Below, one piece after another: positions 39,948-54,985 of a stretch of 64,000 bases of DNA. Made by a program: the position numbers and the translations under genes. Each line of letters begins with the position of its first letter. The stretch's first letter is position 1. This stretch comes from a virus (lineage: Duplodnaviria > Caudoviricetes), in the IMG/VR virus record IMGVR_UViG_3300033997_000553, positions 2,008 through 66,007 of that record; one strand, 5' to 3'. The notes beneath the pieces are model-generated. The model did not search any database. It saw nothing but the letters and a program-made list of their open reading frames with translations, and was not told the origin of the DNA.

Positions 39948-42900
39948 ATGACTGATACCTGGGGCGAGAACGACCTGCTGGCGACTGATCAACCGGCAAC
40001 CGACTTCGGCGCTGATGACGAGGTGGTGCAGGACGGCGCACTTAGCCGCGGCTGGAACAAAGCCAAGCAGAACATGGCGATCAGTACCGACCTGGCGCTG
40101 GGTGACACCGAAGGCGCGGCGCGCACGGTAGGCGAGGCCGCTCTCTACCGGCAGCAGAACCCGGGTATGCAGGAGGGTGCTGAGCTGATGCAGGCCTGGG
40201 ATGAAGGCGACGGCATTGTCGGCGGCGTCAAGGCGGTGGCCGGCGAGTTCAGCAAGGACTGGAACGAGGCGGACGGCTTCGCAGCCGGCGCCCGGTCGGT
40301 CGGCAAGAACCTGCAGGCCATGGGCGAGGGCGTGCTGGAGCAGATGGGCAACATGGTGGCGCCTGTTGCCGGCATGGTCACCGGCGGCGTGGTTGGCTCC
40401 AAGATCGGCGCGCCGGTCGGCGCAGCCATTGGCGCGCCGTTCGCTGGCGTCGGCGCAGCACCCGGCGCAGCCATTGGCGGCACGGTTGGCGGTGTCGCGG
40501 GGGCCTGGGCTGGCGCCTCGGCAGGTAACGCGGCCATTGAAGGCGGCGGCATGGCGCAGGAGGGATTGGCCCAGGCCGGTATCGACCCTACCGACCTTGA
40601 TGCGGTCAAGGCCTACCTGGACGAGAACCGCGGCGAGCTGCTGAAACAGGCCAGCATCAAGGGCGGCATCATCGGCGCGGTCGACACCGCGACCGTCGGC
40701 ATCGCAGGCCGCCTGCTGAACGGCCCTACGCGCGCAGCGACAGCGCGAGCCATGGCCGCTCTGGGCGTGGACGGGAGCGACAAGGCGGCAGTCAAGAGCG
40801 CCACCCAGTCGCAGGCCTTCAGGGATCTGCTGGCGCAGGACGCGGTCTTTCAGTCGTCGCGCCAGGGCGCCGAGAGGATCGCGCGCAACATGGCCGCAGC
40901 CGCCATCTACCCGGCCGGCGAGTTCGCTGGCGAGTACGTCGGCACCGGCGTCGCCACCGGCGAGTGGGACACCAAGAATGCGACCCTGGAAGCGCTCTCT
41001 TCGGTCGGTCAGTCCGCAGCGATGTATGCCGGGCAGAAGGCCTACCAGGCCGCGACCGGCGTCGGCAAGATCCAGCCCCTGGTGCAGCCCACGCCGTCGG
41101 CGGAAAACCCGAACCCGGCACCGGTTGAGCGGCCCGATCCGAGCGCCGGCCCGCTGTCTGCTGCCGCCAACCTGCTGCCCGCACCGAACGTAGACGGTGG
41201 TCCGAGCGGCAGCCAGAGCCCGGTGCAGGAGGCGGCGCGCGCGACCTTGATCAATGGCGCTCCGGAGCCGGCGCAGGCCGGCGACTACCAGCCGGCAGAC
41301 CTGCAGACGGCTGTTGCCCAGCAGATGTTCCGAACCGAGATCGACGAGAACAATCCTGGTGCGCTGCGCTTTTTCCACCGGGATGCAGACCTGCAGTCCT
41401 GGGTGGAGGTGCCTGAGCGGGAGGCGCTGGCTGCCGCCCAGGCTCATATTCAGGACGCCGAGCGGCAGGGCTTCGACCCGATGGATGGACGGGATCTTGG
41501 CCAACTGCTGCCAGAGGTAGACCAGGACCCCGGCCCTCAAGGCACGGGCATGGCGGCTGACGATTTGACGCCCTACGAGCGCAACCAGTTGCGTGCGCTC
41601 GGCGTCACGGACGAGCAGTTGGCCTCAATGACCACCAGGGAGGCCAGACAGCTTCCGCTGCCCACCGTTGACATCGATTCCGGCCCGCAAGTGGTCGAAG
41701 AGGCAGGCGAGTCGCTGCCGCTGCCAACCGTGGAGATGGACAGCGGCCCGCAGCAGGTCGAGCAGGTGCAGGCAGCGCCGATGGCTGACGACTCTGGCTA
41801 TGAGTACCGGGTGCAGAAGAACGGCCGCCCGTTCAAGGGCGAGAGCGATGTGCGTCTGCGCCAGGCCTTCAAGGAGGCTGTGGCTGCCGGCGAGCAGCCG
41901 GTGGTGGTGCAGCGTGAGGGGGGCTGGGCTGTGGCCGTGCCACGCGCGGCAGCAGGGCCCGTAGCCCCCATTGGCATCCCGGATCTGCGACAGAACAGTA
42001 GCGCTGTCGACGCCGCCGGCAATGCGGTGCCTGGCAAGATTGGCAATGTCCCGCCTGCTGATTACGTGCAGAGTGGTCGCGGCATGGACCAGCAGGCGCC
42101 AACCCGTACATTTCCCAACGTGCTGGCGGCCAAGAACGCCATTTCGAAGTCCCCCAATCCTGCCCAGCTCGAAGTGGTACCGGTTGGCCCGAAGCAATTC
42201 GAGATTCGCGCCAAGCAATCCGCAGCTCCGGGTGTAACCGATCAAGCTCCGGACGTAGCCGTAGATGCACCTGCATCGCAACCTGCTGCAGAAGCCGTTG
42301 CAGTCGCGGCGCCTGAAGCTGCGCCGGTGAAAAAGGCCGTCACGGTGAAGCCCTCGCCATCCGCTGCGGACAAGGCCGCACTTCCAGAAGTCCTCCGGCA
42401 TCCCAGGAAGCTCGCCATTGCCAAGATGATGAAGGCTTCTGGCATCAAGAAAGGCTCTCAAGGCTATGAGGCTGCGCTTGCTCGGCTTGAGCTGGAGTAC
42501 GAGCGCCAGGTAGATGACGCCCAAGCAGCGCTGCCGTTTGAGCAGTTCAACGCGCTCAACAAGGAATCGCCGGAGAGCGTGAATCGGCAGGCCTGGACAC
42601 AGCTGCGGACAGAGCGCGGTATTGAGGATGCAGCCAATCCGTTGGCTTCCGAAGAAACTTCGCCACAACAGAATATTGCTGTGGCAGCGGTTGCTAAGTC
42701 CCCCCAGCGACAGCCGCCCGCAAGCAAGGGCCGGACCGCCCCAACCATTTCCAGCACCACCCAACCGGCTGACGTTGCTGCTTCTGGGCAGGAGAAGGCT
42801 GAGTGGGTCGGTTTCACCCCCGATTCCGGCACCTTGGGTATCCCTCGGGCACAAATGCCGCAAATCAAGGCTGAGCACCGGGGGGCGATGGTCAACTTCC

Positions 42901-45900
42901 TCAACGCGCGTGATGTGGCGCATGCCGAGGAGACCATTGCAGCTAGCGAGCTGAAGCCAACCCAGGCCGAGTACTCGACCAAGAAAGTAGAGGCTGCCAA
43001 GGCATTCGATGGTGGCGAGCGCTCGATCCTGATTTCCAGTGATAGGCATGTGCTGGACGGTCACCACCAATGGCTGGCCAAGCGCGAGGCAGGTGAAGAC
43101 GTAAAAGTCATCCGCCTGGATGCCCCCATTCGCCAGCTGCTTGATACGGTTGCCGAGTTCCCCAGCGCCTCAGTCGATGCGGCCAGCGCTGGCCCTGCGA
43201 GCACTCCTCAGGCTGCAAGGGTAGAGGATGCTGGTGAGAAGCTGGGCGGTGCCCGAAAGGACGAGCTACGCAGCGTTCGCGAGCGCCTGGACAGCATGGA
43301 TGATGCTGCTATCGCCAACAGCACGCTGAGCCAGCTGTGGCCGAAGGACGAGATCACCAGGATCGAAGACCTGTTCCACGCGGCCTCGTACCAGACCGTG
43401 CGCGAGATCATTCCAGCCAAGCCTCGGGTGCCATATAAGGTGCGCGCTTGGGTCGAGAAGGTTAAAGGTGCGCGGGAAATCCTGAAGCACTTGGCTCAGC
43501 TCGGCGCCGACACGACTGTGGCCAAGATGCGCCAGTTCAGCCCCGGCTTGCGTCCGATTGCGGACAAAATCGAGCTGCTGATGGGCGTTGATCGTGCGCA
43601 GTGGGGACGCATTGGTCGCGTCAGCATGGCCAGCGGTCGCTACAGCGAAGGCGGCACGATGGTTCCCGGGTCGTGGGTTGAGGTCGAAGTCGACGGTCGG
43701 AAGAAGCACTTCTTTGGAAAGAACTCGGTCGCCGAGGCAATGGGCGATATCCGTGCGGTGATCAACCTGAACTCGGCGCCTGAGTCGCGCATGAAGTTCG
43801 CTATCTACACGGATCGACGCAGCGGCGAAGTGTTCATTGCCAAGGACGGGGATAAGGAACAACGCAGGCTCAAGACCTTTGGCAAGGTAGCCGAGGCGCG
43901 CAAGTTTGTGGCTGACAATCACGCCGACCTCGTTACCGCGTGGGACGCGGTGAAGAACCGCGACAATGTGACCAAGGCTGATATGCGGCGCGATACCAAC
44001 GAGGATCGCGCCGGCCGGGATTATCGCAATGGAGCCGATATCACCCCTGAGCAGTTCATTGAGGCCTTCGGCTTCCGTGGCGTTGAGTTCGGTAACTGGG
44101 TAGCGCAGGGCAGCGGCGGAGCTGATCGGCAGGGGATGTTGAACCAGGCCTACGATGCCTTCATGGATCTGGCTGATGTTGTTGGCGTGCCTCCGAAAGC
44201 ATTGAGCCTGGAAGGGCGCCTAGGAGTTGGCTTTGGATCGCGCGGTCGCGGGAGGGCCAGCGCCCACTTTGAGCCAGGTAATGTGGTCATCAACCTGACC
44301 AAGACCAAGGGGGCCGGCTCTCTGGCGCATGAGTGGTTCCACGCGCTGGACAATTACTTCGCTCGCCAGCGTGGGGGCGAGGTGCCGATGGAGCGCGGGT
44401 TTAACGCCCAGCAGGCCTATCGCAACAACAACTTCATCACCTACCGGCCTGAGCCGCTGTATATCCACAAGACCAAGCAGAGTAAGCCGGTGTCGCTGGA
44501 TAAGTTGCGGCGCTACCACGAACAGAACCCGACCGCCGAGTATTACAACCCAGCGAATTGGCAGGTGGACCCACGTCACCCTGCAGGGGTTCGTCCCGAA
44601 GTTGAGCGGGCATTCGCCGAGCTGGTCGAGGTGCTGGATCAGTCGCCTATGTCACGCCGCTCTGCAGCCCTGGACAAAAACCCTGATGCCTACTGGTCGC
44701 AGATCATCGAGCGCGGCGCGAGGGCGTTCGAAACCTACGTGATTGCCAAGCTCGCCGATCAGGGCTATCGCAATGACTACTTGGCCAATGTCCGCTCGCT
44801 GGAGGAATTTGCCCGTGCCGCTGATCGGTACCCTTACCTGACGCCGGACGAGCAGGGGCCGGTAAGCGAAGCATTCGACAAGCTGTTCTCGACTATCGAA
44901 GCTCGCCAGGAGCAAGACGGTCGGGTCGGGCTATATCGCCTGAATGCTGATACCCAAGCGGCCTACGAGCAGCGTATCGACGACCTGTTCGCTGGTGCCG
45001 AGCCGAACAACACCGCTGGCGTGCGCGTGCTCGACCGGAGCGACGTGCTGGATCTGCTGGGCTATGGCGATCGCGAGGTAGTCCTGGCTGAGAAGCATGC
45101 CGTCAGTGATGGCCGGTTCAATCACCCGCAGTTCACCGCGGCGGATTGGAAGAAGGTGCCAGAGTGGCTGGAGAACCCGGTAGCGGTGTTCGAGCGGGAT
45201 GACGGCAACCTGACCGTCGTTGCGCCTGAAACCAAGGGCGGGAACCCTATTCTGATTGCGATCAACCCCGGAGCAAGTCGGCCCGGGTATGCGGGCGGGA
45301 AGAAGTTGCACGTCTTACTGACGGCCTACGACAGGGATCGTGGTCGGTTCCCGGCTGAGCGCATGATCCGCGATGGCCAGTTGCGCTACATCGACACAAG
45401 AAAAAGCCCCGCATTCAACGATAGTTCAAGGCTCCGATTGCCAAGTAACGTCGTTGAGCTGCGAGGCCTAGGTAAAAAGGTATATACCGGTGCCGATCTT
45501 TTCAAGTACCGCTCAGCGAGCAGCGCCACAGACGGGCAGCGACTGAGGGTCAACCCCGGCAAGGCCAAGGGCATTCCGCTGTTCAGCGCTCGAGCGATTG
45601 CCGCCAAGATCGGCCAGGCCACCGGCCTGCGGGTCGAGCCGGTGGCTGATGAGGCCGGCTTGCCAGCCGCGGTGCGGGCGCAGATCCGGCGCGACGGTGT
45701 GAGCGGGCGGGTGGCGGGCGTCTACCATGACGGCACCTCCTACCTGATCGCCAGCAACCTGCGCGACAGCCAGCACGCCATCAGCGTGGTACTGCATGAA
45801 GCGGTGGGCCATGGCGGCGTCAAGGTGGTGCTCGGCGACAAGCTGGGCATTGCCATGCGCGGGATCTACCGCGGCATGCCGGCGGCAATGCGTACCGAAC

Positions 45901-48900
45901 TTGAGCGCCGTTACGCCGGCCAGCTGGCCGGACTGAAATCCGACAGCGAGCGAGAGGTGCTGATTGCCGAGGAATACGTCGCGCACCTGGCTGAACATGA
46001 CCCCAGCAACAGCGCGCTCGATCGCATCGTGGCGCTGGTCAAGCAGTTCATCCGCAAGCTGTTTGGCGAGCAGGCGGCCGGGAAATGGTCGCGTGCCGAC
46101 GTGGTGCAGCTGCTGGCCGAGGCCAAGCGGGCCGCTGGCAGCCAGGGGGTGAGCGACCGCGGCAGCCGTTACCGGGCCGCTGAAGCCGCCGACGCCCCGG
46201 CCGCACTGCCAGAAGTGGCGGAAGCCGACGAGGCTGAGTTTGTCGCCAGCTTGGCGGGCGACTCTGGCCACCGCGCCTTCGCCGGTGCCATCTACAAGGC
46301 TCGCGGCACCGAGTCGCCGTTCTTCCAGCGCTGGTTCGGCAAGAGCCGCATGGTCGACAAGCAGGGCCAGCCAATTGCCTTTGTGCACCGCAGCTATGGC
46401 GAGCGCGACAGCTTCAGCGATGCCGACCTGGGCAAGAACACCGGAACCCCGACCGCGGCCCTTGGCCACTACCTGGCACGCCGCGACGTGGGCAACGTGG
46501 AGCGCTACGGTCCGGTCACCGAGCAGTTCTATATCCGCATGGAGAAGCCGAAGGTCATCAGCCAGCAGCAGTTCGAGGCGATGGGCGACTGGTCGCTTGC
46601 GCAGGTTGAAGCGTATCGCAAGACCCTGATGGAGCGCGGTCATGACGGCCTGTACATCCAGGGGCTCGGCTGGGCGGTGGTATTCGAGGGCAAGAACATC
46701 AAGGCCAGGCGCAACTCTGGCACCTTCGATGAAACCGCGCGTACTCGCTACGCGGCAACAGAAAGCCTAATCGAAAAGCAGTTTGCCGATACCGAGAAGG
46801 CCATTGGTGGTCGAGCCACTTGGCAGCAGGCGAAGGATGCCGGCCGCACCAAGCTGGAGTATCGTCAGTGGGTGCAGGTGAGAACGCCTGCGTTTAAGGC
46901 ATGGTTTGGAGACTGGGAAAATGGCACTGAGCAAGGAGGAGCAGGCGTCGCTGGAAGCGCTCAAGAACGGGGCAGCCCTGGCGGAAGCACTGGATCTGCT
47001 GCCGCCACCACCACCGGAGTTTCTGGCAACGCTAAACCGCAACGCCGACCCGATAGCGGAGTACGGCGACTGGACGGACGAGGGCGAGTGGATTCCGCCG
47101 GAAGAGGCGTTGAAGCGTCTGGCAGAGAAGCAGCAGGCCAAGTAGAGCGCGACTGGCGCCTTGACCCCCAAACGGGAGAGCCTGCGGTATTTCACCACGG
47201 CACCCGCGACCACTTCACCGCGTTCGACCTGGATCACCCGAACCGCAAGGATAAGGGCTGGCTTGGGCGTGGCGTGTACCTGGCCAGCGACCGTCGCCTG
47301 GCAGATGCCTATGCCAAGCTGAAGCAGGGCTCCGGGCAGCCGCAGGTGATGGACTTGTTCGTCAATGTTCGCAACCCGGCTGTGGCCACGCTGGCGCACA
47401 AGCAAGTGCTCCGTCGCGCCTCGCAGGAGTACATCGATGCGGAAACGGCCGCTCTGATCGCTCGGGGCCACGACGGCGTGGTGATGGAGCTGCCAGACGG
47501 TACTCTGGAGCTGATGGCCTTCGATCCGGCCGACGTCAAGTCGGCGACCGATAACGCCGGGGACTTCGACCCGGCCAGCGCCGATATTCGCTACAGCCTG
47601 GCTCAGGATGCTGCCGATCTGTTCAACCGCTTCGGCCGGCGGCCGGCGGACGTGAACGACCCGTTTGCCGAGGAAAACCGTCGTCTGCGCGAGCAGGACA
47701 AAACCCTGTGGGGCAAGGCCAAGCAGCAATTCCGTCGCCAGTTCGCCCCGGGGGGCCTGCTGCCCGACTCGGTGTTTGCCGAGAAGATCGCCCGCGACAG
47801 CGAGTTTCAGGCCGTAGAGTTCGATGTGCGCCACCTGTCCGGCGGGCTGAACAAGGCCGTGAAGACTGACTACGGCGTCGACATCGACAACCTGACTGCT
47901 GAGCAGATGAAGCCGTTGGCCGAGGCGCTGACCGGCAAGGTAGACCCTGCCATCCCCGAAGCTACCCGCGTGGCTATCGTGGCCATGCGCCAATACATCG
48001 ACAGCCTTTCAGGCGAGTACCTGAGCATCCTGCAGAAGCAGGTCGAGGCGAACATGGAAGGCGCCGACCAGGCGTTGATCGACAAGATCACGGGCAACCT
48101 TGGCGCCTACGTCAACCGTTCGTACCAGGCGTTCGATGACCCGAAGTGGTTCAAGAGAGTGCCAACCGAAGTGGTCAATGCTGCCCGGACCTACCTGGCC
48201 AAGGGCTATATCGAGCAGGGCGAGACGCCGGCCGAAGCGGCGCGCCTGGCGGATGTGACCGTGAATGAAATGCTCAAGACCGGTACTGCTTATGATTCGA
48301 TGGGCGCATTCATTGCCGAGGGCAAGCTTGGCGCCAAAGACCTGACCGTGCTGATCAAGCGTAAGGAGATCGCGCCGGAGATCCGCGCGCTGCTGGGCGA
48401 GTACCTGGACCCGCGTCTGAACTTCGCTAAGTCGGCGACCAAGATGGGCCGTCTGGTGTGGAACCAGCGCTTCCTCGATCGCGTGCTGTCGTTCGGCATG
48501 GGCACCTTCCTGTTTGAAGGCAAGGACCGCCCGGCCGATGCCACGACGCAGATCGCCGGCGAGCAGTCGGAAACCTATGCGCCGTTGAATGGATTGTGGA
48601 CGTACCCGGAAGTCGCGCAAGCGTTTCAGGACGCGCTCGGCAAGGAGCAGATGAGCGACCTGTACCGCACAGTCGTTCGCCTGAACGGCATGGTGAAGTA
48701 CGGCAAGACCATCCTTTCCCCGACCACCGCCATGCGTAACTGGCAGTCGGCCATGTTCTTTTCCCTAGCCAATGGTCACTTCGACCTGACCCAGATGAAG
48801 AAGAGCTGGTCTGCTTTCCGCGAACAGGTAACCCAGAACGCCAGCGGCGACGACCTGGCGTACCTGCGTAAGCTGAAGCAGCTCGGCGTCGTTTACGACA

Positions 48901-50294
48901 CGCCGTATGCCGGCGAGATGATGGCGCTGCTGGCCGATGCCAGAATGGACGAGCTGCTGAGCAGCAAGAGCGGTACCGGCCTGAAGTGGCTGCGCAAGGC
49001 CAACCAGTTCGCCCAGGGCTTTTATTCGTTCGGCGACGACTTCTGGAAGATCATCGGCTTCGAGAACGAGAAGGCCAGCCTGATCAAGGCAGGCATTCCA
49101 GAGACCGAGGCGGAAACCATGGCCGCCGAGCGCATCCGCAACACCTATCCGACCTACTCGATGATCGGCAAGGCCGTGCAGTGGCTGCGGCGGTTCCCGC
49201 TGGTTGGCACCTTCGTCAGCTTCCCGTCGGAGATCATCCGCACAACCGTCAACATGATGAAGCTGACGGCGGATGATCTGAAGAGCGATAACCCTGGCAT
49301 CCGCGCCATCGGCCGCAAGCGCGCCGCCGGCATGGCCATGGTCTCGGCCGGCTTCTATGCGCTGTCAGCGCTGACTGCCGCTGCACTGGGCGTTGGCGAT
49401 GATGAGGAAGAGGCGCTGCGGGATCTGTCGGCGCCCTGGTCGAAGAACTCGACGTTCCTCTACACCGGCCGCGACGCCGACGGCAAGCTGCGCTACTTCG
49501 ACATGAGCTTCCTTGATCCGTACGGCTACTGGAAGCGCCCACTGACGGCGATGCTGCGCGATCAGCCCTGGGAGGACGCGGCCGTCAGCGGCCTGAACGA
49601 CATGCTGTCGCCGTTCTTCGGCGCCGATATCACCGCCGGGGCGATTTTCGAGGTGATGGCCAACAAGAAGCCCACCGGGGGCCAGGTGTACAACGAGCAC
49701 GCCGGCAGCGTTGACCAGCTGCAGGACATTGCCAACCACATGCGCAAGGCGCTGCAGCCAGGCTTCGTGAGCAATGGTGAGCGACTGTGGCTGGCCGGCA
49801 CCGAGGCCCGCCGCGAAGGCGGCGGCCAGCCCTACGACATGCGAGACGAGCTGGTCAGCCTGCTGGGCTGGCGTGCGGCTACGCTGGATACGCAGACCGG
49901 CTTGTACTACCGGTCGTTTGATTTCACCGACGCGCTGGCGGATGCCCGCAAGACGCTGACGCGCACGCTACGCAGCAGTAACGATGTTTCAGAGGGGGAT
50001 ATTCGGGAGTCGAAGCAGGCAGCGAATGCGCAGTATCAGCAGGCATTCACCGAGATGGGCAGGCTGGTCGGCGCTGCAGGGGCGGCTGGGATGAGCCGGC
50101 AGGAGATCATGCAGACGCTCAAGCTCAGCGGCGTGGCACAGCGCAACATCGTGGCGCTGCTGAATGGCAGGGTGCCGGCAATGGATATTGGCATGCAGGC
50201 GCAGGCCAAGGCCGTACAGCAGGCGAGGGTGATGCGCGACACTGAGCACGCCGCAGAGATTGCGCGGCGTTTCCGGCTGGCACGGGAGCAATAA
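39948..50294 (+). CDS. Giant polyvalent protein (ParB-like, LPD5/LPD1, PBECR/MuF-C-like nuclease, zincin peptidase, two ADP-ribosyltransferase-like domains)
   Basis: 3448 aa; VLDGHH, GEKLGGARKD, FGFRGVEFGNW...AHEWFHALD, LHEAVGH, WFGKS...FVHRS, WFGDW...FHHGT...GRGVYL. Confidence 0.9.
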   Translation: MTDTWGENDLLATDQPATDFGADDEVVQDGALSRGWNKAKQNMAISTDLALGDTEGAARTVGEAALYRQQNPGMQEGAELMQAWDEGDGIVGGVKAVAGEFSKDWNEADGFAAGARSVGKNLQAMGEGVLEQMGNMVAPVAGMVTGGVVGSKIGAPVGAAIGAPFAGVGAAPGAAIGGTVGGVAGAWAGASAGNAAIEGGGMAQEGLAQAGIDPTDLDAVKAYLDENRGELLKQASIKGGIIGAVDTATVGIAGRLLNGPTRAATARAMAALGVDGSDKAAVKSATQSQAFRDLLAQDAVFQSSRQGAERIARNMAAAAIYPAGEFAGEYVGTGVATGEWDTKNATLEALSSVGQSAAMYAGQKAYQAATGVGKIQPLVQPTPSAENPNPAPVERPDPSAGPLSAAANLLPAPNVDGGPSGSQSPVQEAARATLINGAPEPAQAGDYQPADLQTAVAQQMFRTEIDENNPGALRFFHRDADLQSWVEVPEREALAAAQAHIQDAERQGFDPMDGRDLGQLLPEVDQDPGPQGTGMAADDLTPYERNQLRALGVTDEQLASMTTREARQLPLPTVDIDSGPQVVEEAGESLPLPTVEMDSGPQQVEQVQAAPMADDSGYEYRVQKNGRPFKGESDVRLRQAFKEAVAAGEQPVVVQREGGWAVAVPRAAAGPVAPIGIPDLRQNSSAVDAAGNAVPGKIGNVPPADYVQSGRGMDQQAPTRTFPNVLAAKNAISKSPNPAQLEVVPVGPKQFEIRAKQSAAPGVTDQAPDVAVDAPASQPAAEAVAVAAPEAAPVKKAVTVKPSPSAADKAALPEVLRHPRKLAIAKMMKASGIKKGSQGYEAALARLELEYERQVDDAQAALPFEQFNALNKESPESVNRQAWTQLRTERGIEDAANPLASEETSPQQNIAVAAVAKSPQRQPPASKGRTAPTISSTTQPADVAASGQEKAEWVGFTPDSGTLGIPRAQMPQIKAEHRGAMVNFLNARDVAHAEETIAASELKPTQAEYSTKKVEAAKAFDGGERSILISSDRHVLDGHHQWLAKREAGEDVKVIRLDAPIRQLLDTVAEFPSASVDAASAGPASTPQAARVEDAGEKLGGARKDELRSVRERLDSMDDAAIANSTLSQLWPKDEITRIEDLFHAASYQTVREIIPAKPRVPYKVRAWVEKVKGAREILKHLAQLGADTTVAKMRQFSPGLRPIADKIELLMGVDRAQWGRIGRVSMASGRYSEGGTMVPGSWVEVEVDGRKKHFFGKNSVAEAMGDIRAVINLNSAPESRMKFAIYTDRRSGEVFIAKDGDKEQRRLKTFGKVAEARKFVADNHADLVTAWDAVKNRDNVTKADMRRDTNEDRAGRDYRNGADITPEQFIEAFGFRGVEFGNWVAQGSGGADRQGMLNQAYDAFMDLADVVGVPPKALSLEGRLGVGFGSRGRGRASAHFEPGNVVINLTKTKGAGSLAHEWFHALDNYFARQRGGEVPMERGFNAQQAYRNNNFITYRPEPLYIHKTKQSKPVSLDKLRRYHEQNPTAEYYNPANWQVDPRHPAGVRPEVERAFAELVEVLDQSPMSRRSAALDKNPDAYWSQIIERGARAFETYVIAKLADQGYRNDYLANVRSLEEFARAADRYPYLTPDEQGPVSEAFDKLFSTIEARQEQDGRVGLYRLNADTQAAYEQRIDDLFAGAEPNNTAGVRVLDRSDVLDLLGYGDREVVLAEKHAVSDGRFNHPQFTAADWKKVPEWLENPVAVFERDDGNLTVVAPETKGGNPILIAINPGASRPGYAGGKKLHVLLTAYDRDRGRFPAERMIRDGQLRYIDTRKSPAFNDSSRLRLPSNVVELRGLGKKVYTGADLFKYRSASSATDGQRLRVNPGKAKGIPLFSARAIAAKIGQATGLRVEPVADEAGLPAAVRAQIRRDGVSGRVAGVYHDGTSYLIASNLRDSQHAISVVLHEAVGHGGVKVVLGDKLGIAMRGIYRGMPAAMRTELERRYAGQLAGLKSDSEREVLIAEEYVAHLAEHDPSNSALDRIVALVKQFIRKLFGEQAAGKWSRADVVQLLAEAKRAAGSQGVSDRGSRYRAAEAADAPAALPEVAEADEAEFVASLAGDSGHRAFAGAIYKARGTESPFFQRWFGKSRMVDKQGQPIAFVHRSYGERDSFSDADLGKNTGTPTAALGHYLARRDVGNVERYGPVTEQFYIRMEKPKVISQQQFEAMGDWSLAQVEAYRKTLMERGHDGLYIQGLGWAVVFEGKNIKARRNSGTFDETARTRYAATESLIEKQFADTEKAIGGRATWQQAKDAGRTKLEYRQWVQVRTPAFKAWFGDWENGTEQGGAGVAGSAQERGSPGGSTGSAAATTTGVSGNAKPQRRPDSGVRRLDGRGRVDSAGRGVEASGREAAGQVERDWRLDPQTGEPAVFHHGTRDHFTAFDLDHPNRKDKGWLGRGVYLASDRRLADAYAKLKQGSGQPQVMDLFVNVRNPAVATLAHKQVLRRASQEYIDAETAALIARGHDGVVMELPDGTLELMAFDPADVKSATDNAGDFDPASADIRYSLAQDAADLFNRFGRRPADVNDPFAEENRRLREQDKTLWGKAKQQFRRQFAPGGLLPDSVFAEKIARDSEFQAVEFDVRHLSGGLNKAVKTDYGVDIDNLTAEQMKPLAEALTGKVDPAIPEATRVAIVAMRQYIDSLSGEYLSILQKQVEANMEGADQALIDKITGNLGAYVNRSYQAFDDPKWFKRVPTEVVNAARTYLAKGYIEQGETPAEAARLADVTVNEMLKTGTAYDSMGAFIAEGKLGAKDLTVLIKRKEIAPEIRALLGEYLDPRLNFAKSATKMGRLVWNQRFLDRVLSFGMGTFLFEGKDRPADATTQIAGEQSETYAPLNGLWTYPEVAQAFQDALGKEQMSDLYRTVVRLNGMVKYGKTILSPTTAMRNWQSAMFFSLANGHFDLTQMKKSWSAFREQVTQNASGDDLAYLRKLKQLGVVYDTPYAGEMMALLADARMDELLSSKSGTGLKWLRKANQFAQGFYSFGDDFWKIIGFENEKASLIKAGIPETEAETMAAERIRNTYPTYSMIGKAVQWLRRFPLVGTFVSFPSEIIRTTVNMMKLTADDLKSDNPGIRAIGRKRAAGMAMVSAGFYALSALTAAALGVGDDEEEALRDLSAPWSKNSTFLYTGRDADGKLRYFDMSFLDPYGYWKRPLTAMLRDQPWEDAAVSGLNDMLSPFFGADITAGAIFEVMANKKPTGGQVYNEHAGSVDQLQDIANHMRKALQPGFVSNGERLWLAGTEARREGGGQPYDMRDELVSLLGWRAATLDTQTGLYYRSFDFTDALADARKTLTRTLRSSNDVSEGDIRESKQAANAQYQQAFTEMGRLVGAAGAAGMSRQEIMQTLKLSGVAQRNIVALLNGRVPAMDIGMQAQAKAVQQARVMRDTEHAAEIARRFRLAREQ
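45398..45505 (-). ncRNA. Candidate antisense hairpin sRNA with its own promoter inside the polyvalent gene
   Basis: TTGAAA-17-TACCTT (45505-45477), then a ~70-nt hairpin with G-U pairs and a U5 tail. Confidence 0.6.
46921..47145 (+). CDS. Nested out-of-frame 74-aa acidic protein inside the second ART domain
   Basis: GGAGA RBS 8 nt before ATG; GC3-rich host-like codons; main frame is a low-complexity insert here. Confidence 0.7.
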   Translation: MALSKEEQASLEALKNGAALAEALDLLPPPPPEFLATLNRNADPIAEYGDWTDEGEWIPPEEALKRLAEKQQAK

Positions 50295-50299
50295 ACAAG

Positions 50300-50328
50300 T
50301 GGGCGCCGAGCTGGCGCCCATTTTTTTC
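50300..50328 (+). terminator. Rho-independent terminator
   Basis: TGGGCGCC-loop-GGCGCCCA then T7. Confidence 0.85.
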
Positions 50329-51360: not shown

Positions 51361-52293
51361 CTAGCGCAGACGCTGAGCCGCCTCAGTGAGCTTGAAGGTG
51401 ATGCCGTTGTGCAGGCCACGATCAATGCTCTGTTGCAGGGCGCGGCAGAGCTGGTCGCACTTCTCCAGGTGGTGCTGCATGGCCATGACTTCCAGGCGAC
51501 AGGCCTCAACGTCGTAGCCGGCGCTGGCAAGCTCGGCGAACAGAGCACGCGACGGCGAGCGCACGTCCATGCCATACAGGGCGGCTGCAGTAATGTGAAT
51601 GCGCGGGTCTTGGCCCTGTGGTTGGTAGCCAAGCTGGTAGGCGTGCGGGTTGTGCTCGGCGAGCCAGCTGGCCGGGTAGTGGAGATTCAGTCGGGCAATC
51701 GGCTTGGCCTGTTCGGCGGCGAGCCATTCCCCTTCAAGCGCATAAGCGGCGATGAAGTTACGGGCGGCGTCCATCTGGTCGGCGGGGATGTCCTGGGCGC
51801 TCACCACGCTGAACGCTTTGTGCATCTGCGCCCAGACGTGCATCTTGGCGCGGCGCCGGGTAGGTGCGGGCAACTGACGCAGCTTGCCGTCCAGTACAGC
51901 ACCCAGGCAGCGGAAGCCGTCGGTGCCGATGGTCTGGCCGATCAGGGTGCGCATCTGGCCCTGATCCTCGTAGCGGCCGTGCTTGCGGATGGCCGGCAGG
52001 ACTTCGGCGGTGACCCACTTCTTGAAGCGTTTGGCTTCGGTCTTGCGGCTGCGCAGGATGGCCGAGTACAGGCCGGACTCGTTGATGACCAGCATTTCCT
52101 GCTCGCCGCCAAGGGTCGGCACAATCTGCCGACCCTTTTCATCATCGTCTAGGTTGCGCGTCATGTCCTTGGCTTCGCTGTACATCAGGGCCAAGGCAAC
52201 ATCAGATGCAACGAACCATGGCCGATCATCGATCAGCAGGGTACGGACTTCGCGGCTTTCGAAACGGAAGGGAATGACTTGGGCGGTTTGCAT
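51361..52293 (-). CDS. BRO-N antirepressor-like protein
   Basis: PWFVASDVA...INESGLYSAILRSRK.EAKRFKKWVT.EVLPAIRKHG; AGGAG RBS. Confidence 0.9.
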   Translation of the reverse strand: MQTAQVIPFRFESREVRTLLIDDRPWFVASDVALALMYSEAKDMTRNLDDDEKGRQIVPTLGGEQEMLVINESGLYSAILRSRKTEAKRFKKWVTAEVLPAIRKHGRYEDQGQMRTLIGQTIGTDGFRCLGAVLDGKLRQLPAPTRRRAKMHVWAQMHKAFSVVSAQDIPADQMDAARNFIAAYALEGEWLAAEQAKPIARLNLHYPASWLAEHNPHAYQLGYQPQGQDPRIHITAAALYGMDVRSPSRALFAELASAGYDVEACRLEVMAMQHHLEKCDQLCRALQQSIDRGLHNGITFKLTEAAQRLR

Positions 52294-52341
52294 GGCTGTC
52301 TCCTGGGGATGGAGTTCGCCGCCGTTGCGACCAAGCAAGAG

Positions 52342-52424
52342 GGTGGCGAACTGTGCGCAGGTTGGTCGACCGGGAGAGACGCAACCCGGCAGGGCCGAAG
52401 CCCTCCCACGCACAGCCCGCCATA
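52342..52424 (-). ncRNA. C4 antisense RNA (P1-type) with flanking targets
   Basis: ATGGCGGGCTGTGCG...CTTCGG...CGACCAA...CGCACAGTTCGCCAC fold; complementary TTGGTCG sites near 52330 and 52480; promoter TTGACG-17-TACCTT at 52545-52517. Confidence 0.8.
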
Positions 52425-52622
52425 AAGCGAGCACAAAAAAACCGCTGACGCGGTATGTGCGACATCTCGATTCCGGGCGACCAAACCCGTACCGCTGAAT
52501 TTGCAGCGGCAGGGGAAAGGTAAACCCGGAAGCAGTGATCGTCAATGGCGCACATTGCGCCACCATTACTGGGTAGGTAGATTGGTCGAGCGCAATTTCC
52601 TGCGCGTCAAAGGAGCGACGAA

Positions 52623-52757
52623 GTGAAAAAGCTATCGGCAGTACTCATGGCCACCCTGATTTCGATGGTGTCCGTATCTTCTTTTGCACATAGCGGCGGC
52701 ACTGACTCGAAAGGCTGTCATCGCAACCACCAAACTGGTGACTACCACTGCCATTAA
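52623..52757 (+). CDS. Secreted YHYH-type His/Cys-rich mini-protein
   Basis: AAGGAG RBS, GTG; MKKLSAVLMATLISMVSVSSFAHSGGTDSKGCHRNHQTGDYHCH. Confidence 0.8.
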   Translation: MKKLSAVLMATLISMVSVSSFAHSGGTDSKGCHRNHQTGDYHCH

Positions 52758-53079
52758 AAGGCAGTGACTAGCCAAGCTAGAGACTGGCTTCTGCCGCTGA
52801 CTTAGTGGCGGCAGGAGACCGGCGCCGATCATCACGACGCCGGCAACCGGCTGGGCCAGTAGCGCGAGAATGCCGAGCACCAAAAGGGCGCCTCCAGAGT
52901 AAACCTTGAGCATGATTCGCCCTCGTCGAGTGGTGGGTTAATGCGCCCGAAAACTGGGCTAAATCCTTTCCGCATCTGATTCCGCGAAGGCTCTAGAATG
53001 CGGGTTTCAAGGCATCCAATTCTGTTTAGTTGCGGAATGGAAAATTCCGTAAGCTGTTGATATGAAAGAGTTTTATGGT

Positions 53080-53127
53080 CGGATTGCAAATCCGCGTACA
53101 TCGGTTCGATTCCGGTATCGGCCTCCA
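53080..53127 (+). other. attR: displaced 3' half of tRNA-Cys(GCA)
   Basis: CGGATTGCAAATCCG anticodon arm, GGTTCGATTCC T-arm and CCA end; D-arm and 5' acceptor strand absent. Confidence 0.88.
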
Positions 53128-53132
53128 GTATA

Positions 53133-53172
53133 GAAAGCCCCGTAGATCACTGATCTACGGGGCTTTTTCTTT
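53133..53172 (+). terminator. Rho-independent terminator
   Basis: AAAGCCCCGTAGATCA-C-TGATCTACGGGGCTTTTT. Confidence 0.9.
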
Positions 53173-53196
53173 GCTGCCGATTAACTTCCGGCAGCC

Positions 53197-53225
53197 TTGC
53201 AGGGGCTGTGAGGGCTGTATATAGT
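53197..53225 (+). promoter_or_regulatory. Sigma70 promoter of tRNA-Leu
   Basis: TTGCAG-17-TATAGT. Confidence 0.7.
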
Positions 53226-53250
53226 CCAGCCCTCGCTTCACAGCGCTACC

Positions 53251-53337
53251 GCCCGAATGGCGAAATCGGTAGACGCAGGGGACTTAAAATCCCTCGCCAG
53301 CAATGGCATGCCGGTTCGAGTCCGGCTTCGGGCACCA
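53251..53337 (+). tRNA. leuZ: tRNA-Leu (UAA)
   Basis: 87-nt cloverleaf, anticodon loop CT-TAA-AA, long variable arm, GGTTCGAGTCC, CCA. Confidence 0.96.
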
Positions 53338-54097
53338 AGAAAATCAACGACTTAGGTCAGCCATCGTGCTGGCCTTTTTCGTTTCTAGGGGTTTTCGTGT
53401 CTATACCGTGTCTATAGGGAACTGGACGCGGGCGCCGACGGACGGCAACGCTGCATCGTGACCTACCCGGCACGAAATGTGTGGCCCAGAGCTGCGCGGC
53501 AGCTCAATGTGATCACCTTGGGCAGGACAAGGTCGCCAAATGGAGAGATTCCCCGACAGGGCCGAGAAAACTGGGAAGCGGAATTGCAATTGATTGCAAC
53601 GAATATTGAAGCCCCACCACCAAGTGGAGTTTTCTTACCCCGCGTGACGTGCCCCACGGGTGACCATATATGGACTGTCGCTGACAGGCAGCCAGCACCC
53701 TAAGCGGACATCCCCATGCTAGTGCAGCCGCTACGTCCGTTGCGGTTTTTGATGGTGCGCTTAGTGATTGAAAGCAGAATTTTACGCCCTTTACGCAGCT
53801 TCTCCGGCGCTCATGTTGACGATCTTGCGCTCCGCTGCTTATCATTCCGCTACGGCTCCTGATTCGTTGCATTGATCATGCAGTGATCTGGAGGGCTACT
53901 GAGAGACCCAGCGGATTTCCTCAATGTGGAGTCCAAGCGCTTCTCAAGGGCTGTAGCAACGCCCACGCGCTGTCGAGTATGTGGTTCTGCCCGACAGACG
54001 ACGTTGCCAACAGTTTGGAACCAGGCAGCTATATATTGCATTCATCGATACCCGCCACACTCGGTGGCGGGATATTGACTTTACGCCTGGAATTTAA

Positions 54098-54985
54098 ATG
54101 GACGAACTAGCGCACGCCAAACAGCTGATACTGCAGCTGCTCTCCACCGTATCATTCGAATACTGTGCCCGCCTCAAGCAACGCCTCAATAGCAACTTGG
54201 CCTCTCAAGGCCTGCCCGTCTTCAATGAGCTCAAATACGGTAGCAAGAAGTTCTCGCAGTTCCTCGCGACCCAGTTTGATGACAGGCTGATCCTGGAAAA
54301 GCCCATCGGCCTGGGGGACATCCGCGTTTCGCTCAATCATCCGCTCCCTGGCACGGCGCATGTCGGCAGCACCGGCTTCGCATCGAAACGCGAGCAGTTG
54401 ATGGCCATTCGCAGTGACATCTGGCAAGCCTTCACCAACCCCGATGAAAAGAGAAAGCGTTACCTCAATCGCATCACAAGCGAGGTCGTACATTTCATCG
54501 AGGACGCTCAGGATGAGTTCCAGCAGAAGGTGCAGGCAGCACCGCAGAGTTACATCGAAATTGAATTCATTCCTGCCGCGACCCTGCAGGAATGGATGCA
54601 CGAGTTTCTCGACCTGCTTGGCTTGCCGGCAACCGAAAGAGCTCCACTGGAAAGCCTCATTGCCAGTGAGTACTCAAGCAGCGTGAACGCCGCCTTCACC
54701 AAGGCGCTGGGTAGTCGAGAGCAAGAGTGGCGAAAGATTCGCACACTCAAGGTCGCCGAACGTATCAAGGCCTGGGCGACCCAGCACAACATCAAACACG
54801 AAAACCTGAGCCTTCAGCGGCACTCCGAAGTCACGCAGCCTACCACTTCGGTTGAGGTGCAAGTCCGTGTGCTGACTCCGCGACAGCAGGCCACCAAATT
54901 GCTTGAGCGCATGAGTGATGAAGACATCCTCACAGTCGCAATCCCGGTGCTACTGAGCAGCGTCCTGAGCAAGTCGCAAATCTAA
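54098..54985 (+). CDS. OST-HTH/LOTUS + UPF0158-like protein
   Basis: LKQRL...FNELKYGSKKFSQFL; RYLNRITSEV...YIEI..IP...WMHEFL...W...IKAWATQHNI. Confidence 0.7.
   Translation: MDELAHAKQLILQLLSTVSFEYCARLKQRLNSNLASQGLPVFNELKYGSKKFSQFLATQFDDRLILEKPIGLGDIRVSLNHPLPGTAHVGSTGFASKREQLMAIRSDIWQAFTNPDEKRKRYLNRITSEVVHFIEDAQDEFQQKVQAAPQSYIEIEFIPAATLQEWMHEFLDLLGLPATERAPLESLIASEYSSSVNAAFTKALGSREQEWRKIRTLKVAERIKAWATQHNIKHENLSLQRHSEVTQPTTSVEVQVRVLTPRQQATKLLERMSDEDILTVAIPVLLSSVLSKSQI

Follow-up and report, generated by a model that had tools for sequence, protein, structure and literature searches.

A predicted small-RNA gene nested antisense in the RNase module of giant phage proteins looks like an undescribed, conserved RNA family

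The locus and its antisense element

The DNA analysed here (hereafter, the window) is a 64,000-nucleotide (nt) stretch of the viral IMG/VR record IMGVR_UViG_3300033997_000553. It contains a giant gene for a polyvalent protein, within which, on the opposite strand, a promoter-like sequence, a long hairpin and a run of U residues follow one another, and we propose that they form the gene of a small RNA (sRNA) that is inherited together with the predicted RNase domain encoded on the other strand. The giant gene closes the virion structural module of an IMG/VR provirus, and the genes upstream of it code for a tail fibre, head closure and virion structural proteins. Its product carries the Pfam domains LPD5, LPD1, MuF_C and ART-PolyVal. 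The MuF_C domain, which Iyer et al. 2017 (PMC5512222) class as a PBECR domain, scored 52.5-56.8 bits in this protein, with a curated cut-off for the family (PF18819) of 27.6 bits.

A reading of this DNA from its letters alone (the sequence-only reading) had placed TTGAAA, a spacer of 17 nt and TACCTT ahead of a hairpin and a U-tract on the minus strand, and we could retrace this series base for base (Table 1). Folding the minus-strand RNA from 45475 to 45398 gave, as that reading had it, one single hairpin, with a free energy of -32.0 kcal/mol and a z of -5.44, and none of 200 dinucleotide shuffles was as stable. The plus strand of the same stretch reached -28.2 kcal/mol (z -4.46), a difference explained by two G-U pairs that work on the minus strand only, as had also been noticed (two G-U and no A-C cells in the row of the window). 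The predicted RNA is about 72 nt long, from the start at 45469 to the end of the U-tract. On the minus strand, the 3' end of the hairpin reads GGGGC-UUUUUCUU: the 9-bp basal stem holds six G-C pairs and UUUUUCUU stands right behind it, as in an intrinsic terminator, while the sense strand opposite the U-tract consists of the A-rich codons AGA-AAA-AGC (R-K-S). The overlap with the end of a PBECR/MuF-C-like domain was likewise correct, since the 3' end of the RNA meets the end of the Pfam MuF_C match.

Using a protein search, we found 19 other giant proteins with a MuF_C module. In the alignment of the giant proteins, the conserved unit extends past the Pfam boundary to ...TGADLFKYR, so that the codons spanned by the hairpin form part of a conserved C-terminal extension. 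Within the 3448-codon gene of the window, codon adaptation is lowest at codons 1826-1845 (45423-45482; 0.26, the mean of the gene being 0.67), with a run of rare AGT, TCA, AGG, CGA, TTG, CTA, GGT, AAA and GTA codons, and these 20 codons coincide exactly with the hairpin and the -10 region. When adjusted for dinucleotide composition, the hairpin ranks 18th among the non-overlapping 80-nt windows of the 64 kb, and 35th among 12,786 windows. Taken alone, the evidence from the window is only suggestive; it is the comparative evidence presented below that argues convincingly against a chance origin.

Table 1. Coordinates of the antisense element, its host gene and related copies (positions are those of the window unless a locus is named)
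Feature	Position	Strand	Description and basis
Giant polyvalent-protein gene, 3448 amino acids (aa)	39948-50294	plus	Open reading frame (ORF) and translation; sense host of the antisense element
MuF_C (PBECR-type predicted RNase), aa 1724-1821	45117-45410	plus	Pfam PF18819
Conserved C-terminal extension of the module (PAFNDSSRLRLPSNVVELRGLGKKVYTGADLFKYR)	45411-45512	plus	Homologue protein alignments; same codons encode the predicted antisense RNA gene
-35 hexamer TTGAAA	45505-45500	minus	Antisense of L-F-K codons; the Leu codon is the rare CTT
-10 hexamer TACCTT	45482-45477	minus	17 nt past the -35; T1, A2 and T6 kept
Predicted transcription start, A	45469	minus	8 nt past the -10, at the hairpin foot; promoter geometry
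64-nt bulged hairpin	45468-45405	minus	Basal 9-bp G+C-rich stem, 7-bp middle, short inner stems, apical 3-bp stem
Apical 7-nt loop AAUCGGA (family AAUYGNA)	45433-45439	minus	Antisense of codons CTC-CGA-TTG
U-tract UUUUUCUUG	45397-45405	minus	Adjoins the stem; first U pairs with the first stem G; predicted intrinsic termination site
Motif copies without a MuF_C core ahead	L090 11085-11157; L091 5264-5336; L078 2735-2811; L099 4990-5057		Translations
Shiga toxin (Stx)-phage member	L177 1869-1944 = VT2-Sakai 53621-53696	minus	12-bp outer stem; TTGCGA-17-TATTTT

Conservation in relatives and tests of codon choice

DNA of relatives came from a related-locus search and from screening 401 genomes for Pfam PF18819, with matches in seven. 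This gave 15 distinct loci besides the window (L002-L007, L009, L010, L070-L074, L076 and L077), with 33-66% aa identity to it where tblastn reported a value and a locus G+C content of 0.39-0.67. The antisense hairpin, which the sequence-only reading had expected to find in homologues together with its promoter, was present at the homologous codons in all 15 loci, with a length of about 53-89 nt and a stem sequence of its own in each, and a U-run lay directly 3' of the hairpin in all 17 further hairpins listed. Regarding the promoter, most loci showed TTGACA, TTGAAA or TTGACT, 17 nt and TAnnnT, ending 4-11 nt ahead of the stem. The -10 variants found at this same spacing were TATATT, TATCTT, TATAAT, TATACT and similar, several relatives (including the low-G+C L070) had a perfect TTGACA-17-TATAAT, and one subgroup (L002, L006 and L074) had a -10 element only, TAGAAT or TAAAAT. 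In the protein-ascertained relatives inspected, the third base of the middle loop codon is A (giving the rare CGA or CAA), and both the loop sequence and the synonymous sites in it have been kept over a G+C range from 36% to 67%.

That RNA and domain travel together, as had been proposed, was borne out from both directions: every protein-found locus had the element, and in nine of the ten ORF segments found through the loop motif, Pfam MuF_C ended right at it. The MuF_C-linked element spans quite different polyvalent architectures according to Pfam. Four copies of the loop motif (L090b, L091, L078 and L099) had neither a promoter nor an excess of hairpin stability, and their translations have no MuF_C core ahead; L099, the only one of the four run through Pfam, gave no MuF_C match. 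All four share a peptide K-x-P...GLQLP as well as the same loop nucleotides, and polyvalent proteins may reuse this peptide as a linker or as a processing motif. Finally, the MuF-C domain of phage Mu is called inactive by Iyer et al. 2017 (PMC5512222), and in this single case gene F had no element and its MuF-C stayed below the Pfam cut-off.

RNAalifold found almost no consensus structure in plain MAFFT alignments, because the arms differ in register. We therefore imposed the window structure by hand on an alignment (A3), and searched the resulting covariance model, R1, over 69 sources (552 kb). R1 scored 66.1 bits at the window element (E 9e-15) and matched all the training sequences, the third L077 copy, and also L073 and L076, on which it had not been trained. 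The 51 control loci gave no match; these came from an IMG/VR scan with an 18-nt coding pattern, are mostly unrelated and share with the element this DNA pattern only. The model also gave one stray match in the window, to a weak unrelated terminator at 53135-53173 (E 0.027). As a second route of entry, we scanned IMG/VR for a 17-nt apical motif, which matched 99 stretches, and searched 79 of the loci: 49 of them gave 51 R1 matches at E <= 0.01, and the other 30 gave none at that threshold. The loop is fixed by the choice of these loci, so its conservation carries no weight in this set. Among the unique promoter-plus-hairpin sequences of the apical-motif set, 38 of 40 are antisense to an open frame. 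Altogether, dozens of IMG/VR contigs carry the element. No match came from blastn of the window region against phages and plasmids, from tblastn queries with the modules of the window and of L125, or from blastn of L025 against E. coli genomes.

Covariation, which the sequence-only reading had named as a check, was found at the 3' ends of the homologous domains, in two alignments that were fitted to the model and with which the folds of the single sequences agree. In alignment A5 (18 sequences), 73.2% of the cells were paired, compared with 57.1% in shuffles, and the covariation score was 0.430, compared with 0.192 in shuffles (none of 500 reached it) and 0.12-0.24 in slid controls. The corresponding values for A6, which holds 31 distinct apical-motif sequences, were 75.8% versus 56.1% of cells paired and a score of 0.477 versus 0.175 (again none of 500 shuffles). 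Changes on both sides of a pair occurred in 19 of the 21 pairs in A5 and in 20 of 21 in A6, and the outer helix of A6 had compensatory changes in nine of nine pairs.

We then recoded each element synonymously with the codon usage of its own ORF, making 150 hairpin recodings of each. Over 30 elements, the natural hairpins were more stable than their recodings by a mean z of -3.1, and for 20 of them no recoding was as stable as the natural hairpin; the window hairpin had -32.0 kcal/mol against -22.5 kcal/mol in the recodings, three of which were as stable. The hairpin is thus not a by-product of the protein sequence. Promoter scores of at least 9 were found in 18 of 32 dereplicated elements and in 3.3% of 2000 random 60-mers, the spacer measured 17 nt in 30 of the 32, and 25 of them had a gap of 4-11 nt between the end of the -10 and the model match. 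In 19 of 30 elements, the natural promoter lay in the top 5% of the recodings (0.6% for the window). Besides, identical residues were written with the same codon in 403 of 775 pairs (52%) in the element and in 1191 of 3234 (37%) in the domain core. These comparisons indicate that the promoter hexamers and the apical loop are held by unusual codon choices.

The two strands did not behave alike. Folding favoured the antisense strand in 26 of the 32 dereplicated elements, with a mean difference of -4.4 kcal/mol (Wilcoxon p 2e-5), and in the giant gene, used as a control, that strand won in 47% of 1026 windows. The antisense strand has 45 G-U cells and 24 A-C cells, and several A6 columns are mostly U-G, which turn into C-A mismatches on the sense strand. 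Moreover, the U-run always lies 3' of the stem as read on the antisense strand. The strand bias, the placement of the U-run and the promoter point to an antisense RNA rather than to an mRNA structure or a strand-neutral DNA palindrome. Judged by sequence comparison, we have here a genuine and conserved small-RNA gene that lies antisense within a coding sequence. In the AlphaFold2 model, the peptide encoded by the element has predicted local distance difference test (pLDDT) values of 83-92, and for this reason the stretch appears to be truly dual-coding.

Members of the family also occur in cultured material. A 55-kb plasmid of Acinetobacter baumannii (a phage-plasmid) carries a member with 28.7 bits and TTGACT-16-TAATAT, and the Stx phage VT2-Sakai has one in orf71, shared with relatives of the 933W/Sp5 type. 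The Stx-phage stretch is present in 426 of 5426 complete E. coli genomes. As some members lie in prophages of medical relevance, for which transcriptome data are already public, expression can be checked quickly. The sRNA surveys of enterohaemorrhagic E. coli in PMC4104026 and PMC7547250 report prophage sRNAs in their supplements, and the Stx-phage member may already have been seen there, unrecognised.

Several other identities were considered for the element and rejected. The sequence-only reading had called the loop tRNA-arm-like, and this did not hold: AAUCGGA has an A at the position equivalent to U33, the second position of the family loop is A and not U, and Rfam had nothing tRNA-like at the element; mimicry of an anticodon arm or a T-arm was rejected. 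ARAGORN, run on ten related loci and not on the window, found no tRNA. The sense codon at the centre, CGA or CAA (rare in genomes of high G+C content), is complemented exactly and in frame by the middle three loop bases, and the loop formally presents the anticodon UCG or UUG, yet with A where tRNAs have U33. Marginal Rfam tRNA matches lie on the strand of the RNA about 170-250 nt upstream of the element in L134 (1164-1231, minus, 29.4 bits) and L085 (1378-1432, minus, 26.1 bits), unconfirmed by ARAGORN. As a -1 frameshift signal the element was discarded with an A-rich run whose frame is inconsistent among relatives and which stands 0-3 nt from the stem; as a Shine-Dalgarno decoy, with a loop GGAG that is not conserved; and as a mimic of CRISPR repeats, with no known resemblance to such repeats. 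Searching Rfam 15 gave no match at E <= 10 in window positions 45200-45700 and none at the element in nine further loci at E <= 1.

One relative, L077, has 2.5 tandem copies of a 289-nt unit at 783-1515. The length of the unit is not a multiple of three, R1 matches three times in the array (862-938, 1150-1226 and 1439-1515), a promoter-like site stands ahead of the match in both copies inspected, and the MuF_C ORF stops within the array, which looks as if the RNA gene, and not the protein, had been amplified. Elsewhere in the window, a 12-bp G+C-rich hairpin at 50297-50323 lies directly 3' of the stop codon of the giant gene. On either strand it resembles a terminator, the plus strand having a clean T-run and the minus strand a weaker tail, and it may already block antisense transcription that would enter the giant gene from downstream. 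The three strongest composition-adjusted hairpins of the window (53121-53200, 52741-52820 and 54021-54100, plus strand) fall in the region 52700-54100, 5' of a minus-strand anti-repressor gene (51361-52566). They may be terminators or operators of a regulatory region, and the stray R1 match is to one of them.

Possible functions of the RNA

The function we prefer, in which we place about even confidence, is that of a cis-antisense repressor that would act through a kissing loop on the RNase-bearing polyvalent gene in lysogens. Our preference comes from the full complementarity of the RNA to its target together with the complementary 7-nt loops, which is the classical kissing-loop geometry. Host RNA polymerase would make the RNA from the prophage, starting on the minus strand at about 45469 from the sigma-70-type promoter TTGAAA-17-TACCTT. 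The transcript would be essentially one long hairpin whose basal G+C stem and U-tract serve as its own terminator, giving a stable RNA of about 72 nt. The mRNA stretch for the C-terminal extension of the MuF_C/PBECR module would be a perfect complement of this RNA, the complementary sense and antisense hairpins could meet by a 7-nt loop-loop kiss, and pairing would lower the stability or the translation of the giant late mRNA. In this way, leaky or incoming expression of the RNase-bearing protein would be silenced in lysogens. The transcription, the ends of the RNA and its antisense action are what we infer from the features of the locus. As a precedent, prophage antisense RNAs to late structural genes are described in a review (PMC12197685).

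A number of observations weigh against the RNA gene or this function for it. In the window, a consensus scan reported neither an antisense promoter nor a terminator; the latter is absent from so simple a scan because the enclosed 'loop' is longer than 8 nt. The -10 of the window agrees with the consensus at three of six positions only, and a textbook terminator would be shorter and less bulged than this hairpin. Among the relatives, promoter scores did not exceed the expectation from recoding in 11 of 30 elements, and the Stx-phage member is degenerate, with 14.7 bits. Since the peptide read from these codons is conserved too and predicted to fold, some of the conservation is owed to the protein. 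Finally, a pure cis-antisense RNA needs no conserved loop and no fixed position in a domain over deep divergence, and having both hints at an additional or a different partner.

Such a partner could be the domain itself, which is the main rival explanation and the one offered by the sequence-only reading. Possibly, if rather doubtfully, the RNA is an antitoxin, decoy or immunity factor, with a hairpin that would bind the MuF_C/PBECR RNase via the AAUYGNA loop and keep the domain inactive in the cell that makes it or in the lysogen. It would fit with this that the RNA is tied to the domain and not to the gene (15 of 15 protein-found loci, nine of ten loop-motif ORFs, varied architectures), that the loop and its synonymous sites have been kept over so wide a range of G+C content, that the four motif copies standing apart from the MuF_C core lack both promoter and hairpin excess, and that the inactive MuF-C of phage Mu, a single case, is without the element. 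MuF_C is a predicted metal-independent RNase. The fold matches of our AlphaFold2 model, to RelE/BrnT folds, point in this direction, but they were weak and none was significant (best E 0.18, none <= 0.001). The known type III antitoxins, however, are tandem repeats lying upstream on the same strand and processed by their toxin, a layout that the window, with its single antisense copy, does not show; the one tandem array found was that of L077. The loop, moreover, is not tRNA-like at the U33-equivalent position, and full complementarity to the toxin mRNA makes an antisense effect expected anyway, which would suffice. What we put forward tentatively under this heading would be a toxin-antitoxin unit without a separate antitoxin gene, combining type I and type III logic, with its antidote encoded opposite the codons that finish the domain. 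Toxin and antidote would then make up one indivisible cassette that survives domain shuffling, which, if true, would explain how the RNase module is shuffled among giant polyvalent proteins, including those of Stx phages and Acinetobacter phage-plasmids, without loss of the antidote.

The remaining explanations are much less likely than the cis-antisense repressor or the antitoxin. It is improbable that the functional molecule is the sense mRNA, in which the hairpin and the rare codons would slow ribosomes or mark an RNase site at the domain boundary, the antisense signals being incidental. The sense strand does fold well, and the element, at the end of the domain, is the stretch of lowest codon adaptation of the gene; but the antisense strand is the better folder in most elements, with no such bias gene-wide, its G-U pairs become C-A mismatches in the mRNA, and the sequence offers no slippery heptamer in frame and at a spacing that would allow frameshifting. 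Neither a consensus promoter that codon choice preserves with a constant spacer of 17 nt nor the U-run placed exactly 3' of the antisense stem would be explained.

More improbable still is a role at the level of DNA, be it as a selfish palindromic insertion, a recombination linker for module shuffling or a single-stranded DNA site. The element is an imperfect palindrome at a module boundary, in a protein family known for domain shuffling (PMC5512222). The L077 array, with its three model matches, would also suit such a role. The arms of the window copy happen to match the R''/R' consensus of integron attC sites, but an attC-like site had to be rejected, the match being absent from the relatives. 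Against a DNA-level role, the element is single-copy both in the window and in its 66-kb record, the copies of the family are deeply diverged with compensatory changes instead of being recent near-identical repeats, and the G-U strand bias and the promoter would have no explanation. As for a chance hairpin beside chance promoter-like hexamers in a long G+C-rich gene, its modest rank in the window, the silence of the consensus scan and the three recodings of the window copy that fold as well would allow for it, but its recurrence at the same codons in every relative examined, the covariation and the recoding and strand tests contradict it and make it negligible.

Novelty and relation to known systems

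The element looks like a previously undescribed conserved RNA family, a predicted cis-antisense sRNA nested in, and co-inherited with, a protein-domain module. The sections of Iyer et al. 2017 (PMC5512222) on the PBECR/MuF-C domain mention no RNA; this was the one paper that full-text searching found for the domain. A full-text search for polyvalent proteins together with antisense RNA or RNA antitoxins gave no paper with the term 'polyvalent proteins', and no description of the element turned up. Rfam 15 has no such family, and a covariance model for finding further members is now at hand. Phage antisense sRNAs are usually known from one phage at a time and from gene borders, while here a whole predicted RNA gene lies on the reverse strand of a domain module and has been retained as the protein and the stems diverged. 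This makes it an unusually clear case of natural dual coding, with the codon choice of one strand dictated by the RNA gene of the other, and for the PBECR/MuF-C RNase domains, which are poorly understood, it supplies a candidate for a regulator or antidote, one that is open to direct testing.

Among known systems, the closest are short antisense RNAs of mobile elements. RNA-OUT of IS10 is a short cis-antisense hairpin RNA. OOP of phage lambda and sar of P22, the sizes of which are tabulated in PMC12197685, are comparable to it. With these three our element shares a length of about 70 nt, a constitutive promoter of its own opposite a coding region, a dominant stem-loop, its own terminator and pairing with the sense mRNA, all of them predicted in our case. 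They overlap gene ends or leaders of one element, whereas the element described here lies wholly inside a conserved domain module, is inherited with this module across divergent giant genes, and has a conserved loop and covarying stems.

For STnc6030 of the Salmonella prophage BTP1, the account in PMC12197685 is of an RNA antisense to a late virion gene that lowers its target mRNA and excludes superinfecting relatives, induction being left unblocked. As described there, STnc6030 measures 786 nt, is antisense to the tailspike gene and belongs to one phage, in contrast to the structured RNA of about 72 nt predicted here, a family tied to an RNase domain.

In both type I toxin-antitoxin pairs and our element, a potentially harmful nuclease would be kept in check by a small antisense RNA; the part shown for our element is the antisense overlap. 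SymE/SymR is a type I pair with an enzyme as its toxin, and RalR/RalA is another such pair (PMC4041452). Unlike in these pairs, the 'toxin' here would be one domain of a 3448-aa virion protein, and the RNA lies inside the coding sequence of this domain and not at the end of a small gene.

In the type III system ToxIN, tandem repeats that precede the toxin gene in the same orientation encode the ToxI RNA, which the toxin itself processes. The likeness would be in an RNA that neutralises an endoribonuclease and is inherited with it; the differences are the single antisense hairpin and the BECR/RelE-like RNase fold, which is not the fold of ToxN. Finally, the Rickettsia palindromic elements are palindromic DNA translated in frame within proteins, as our element is, and occur as recent repeats dispersed over many unrelated genes. 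By comparison, the element described here is single-copy, ancient and covarying, and it is bound to one domain family.

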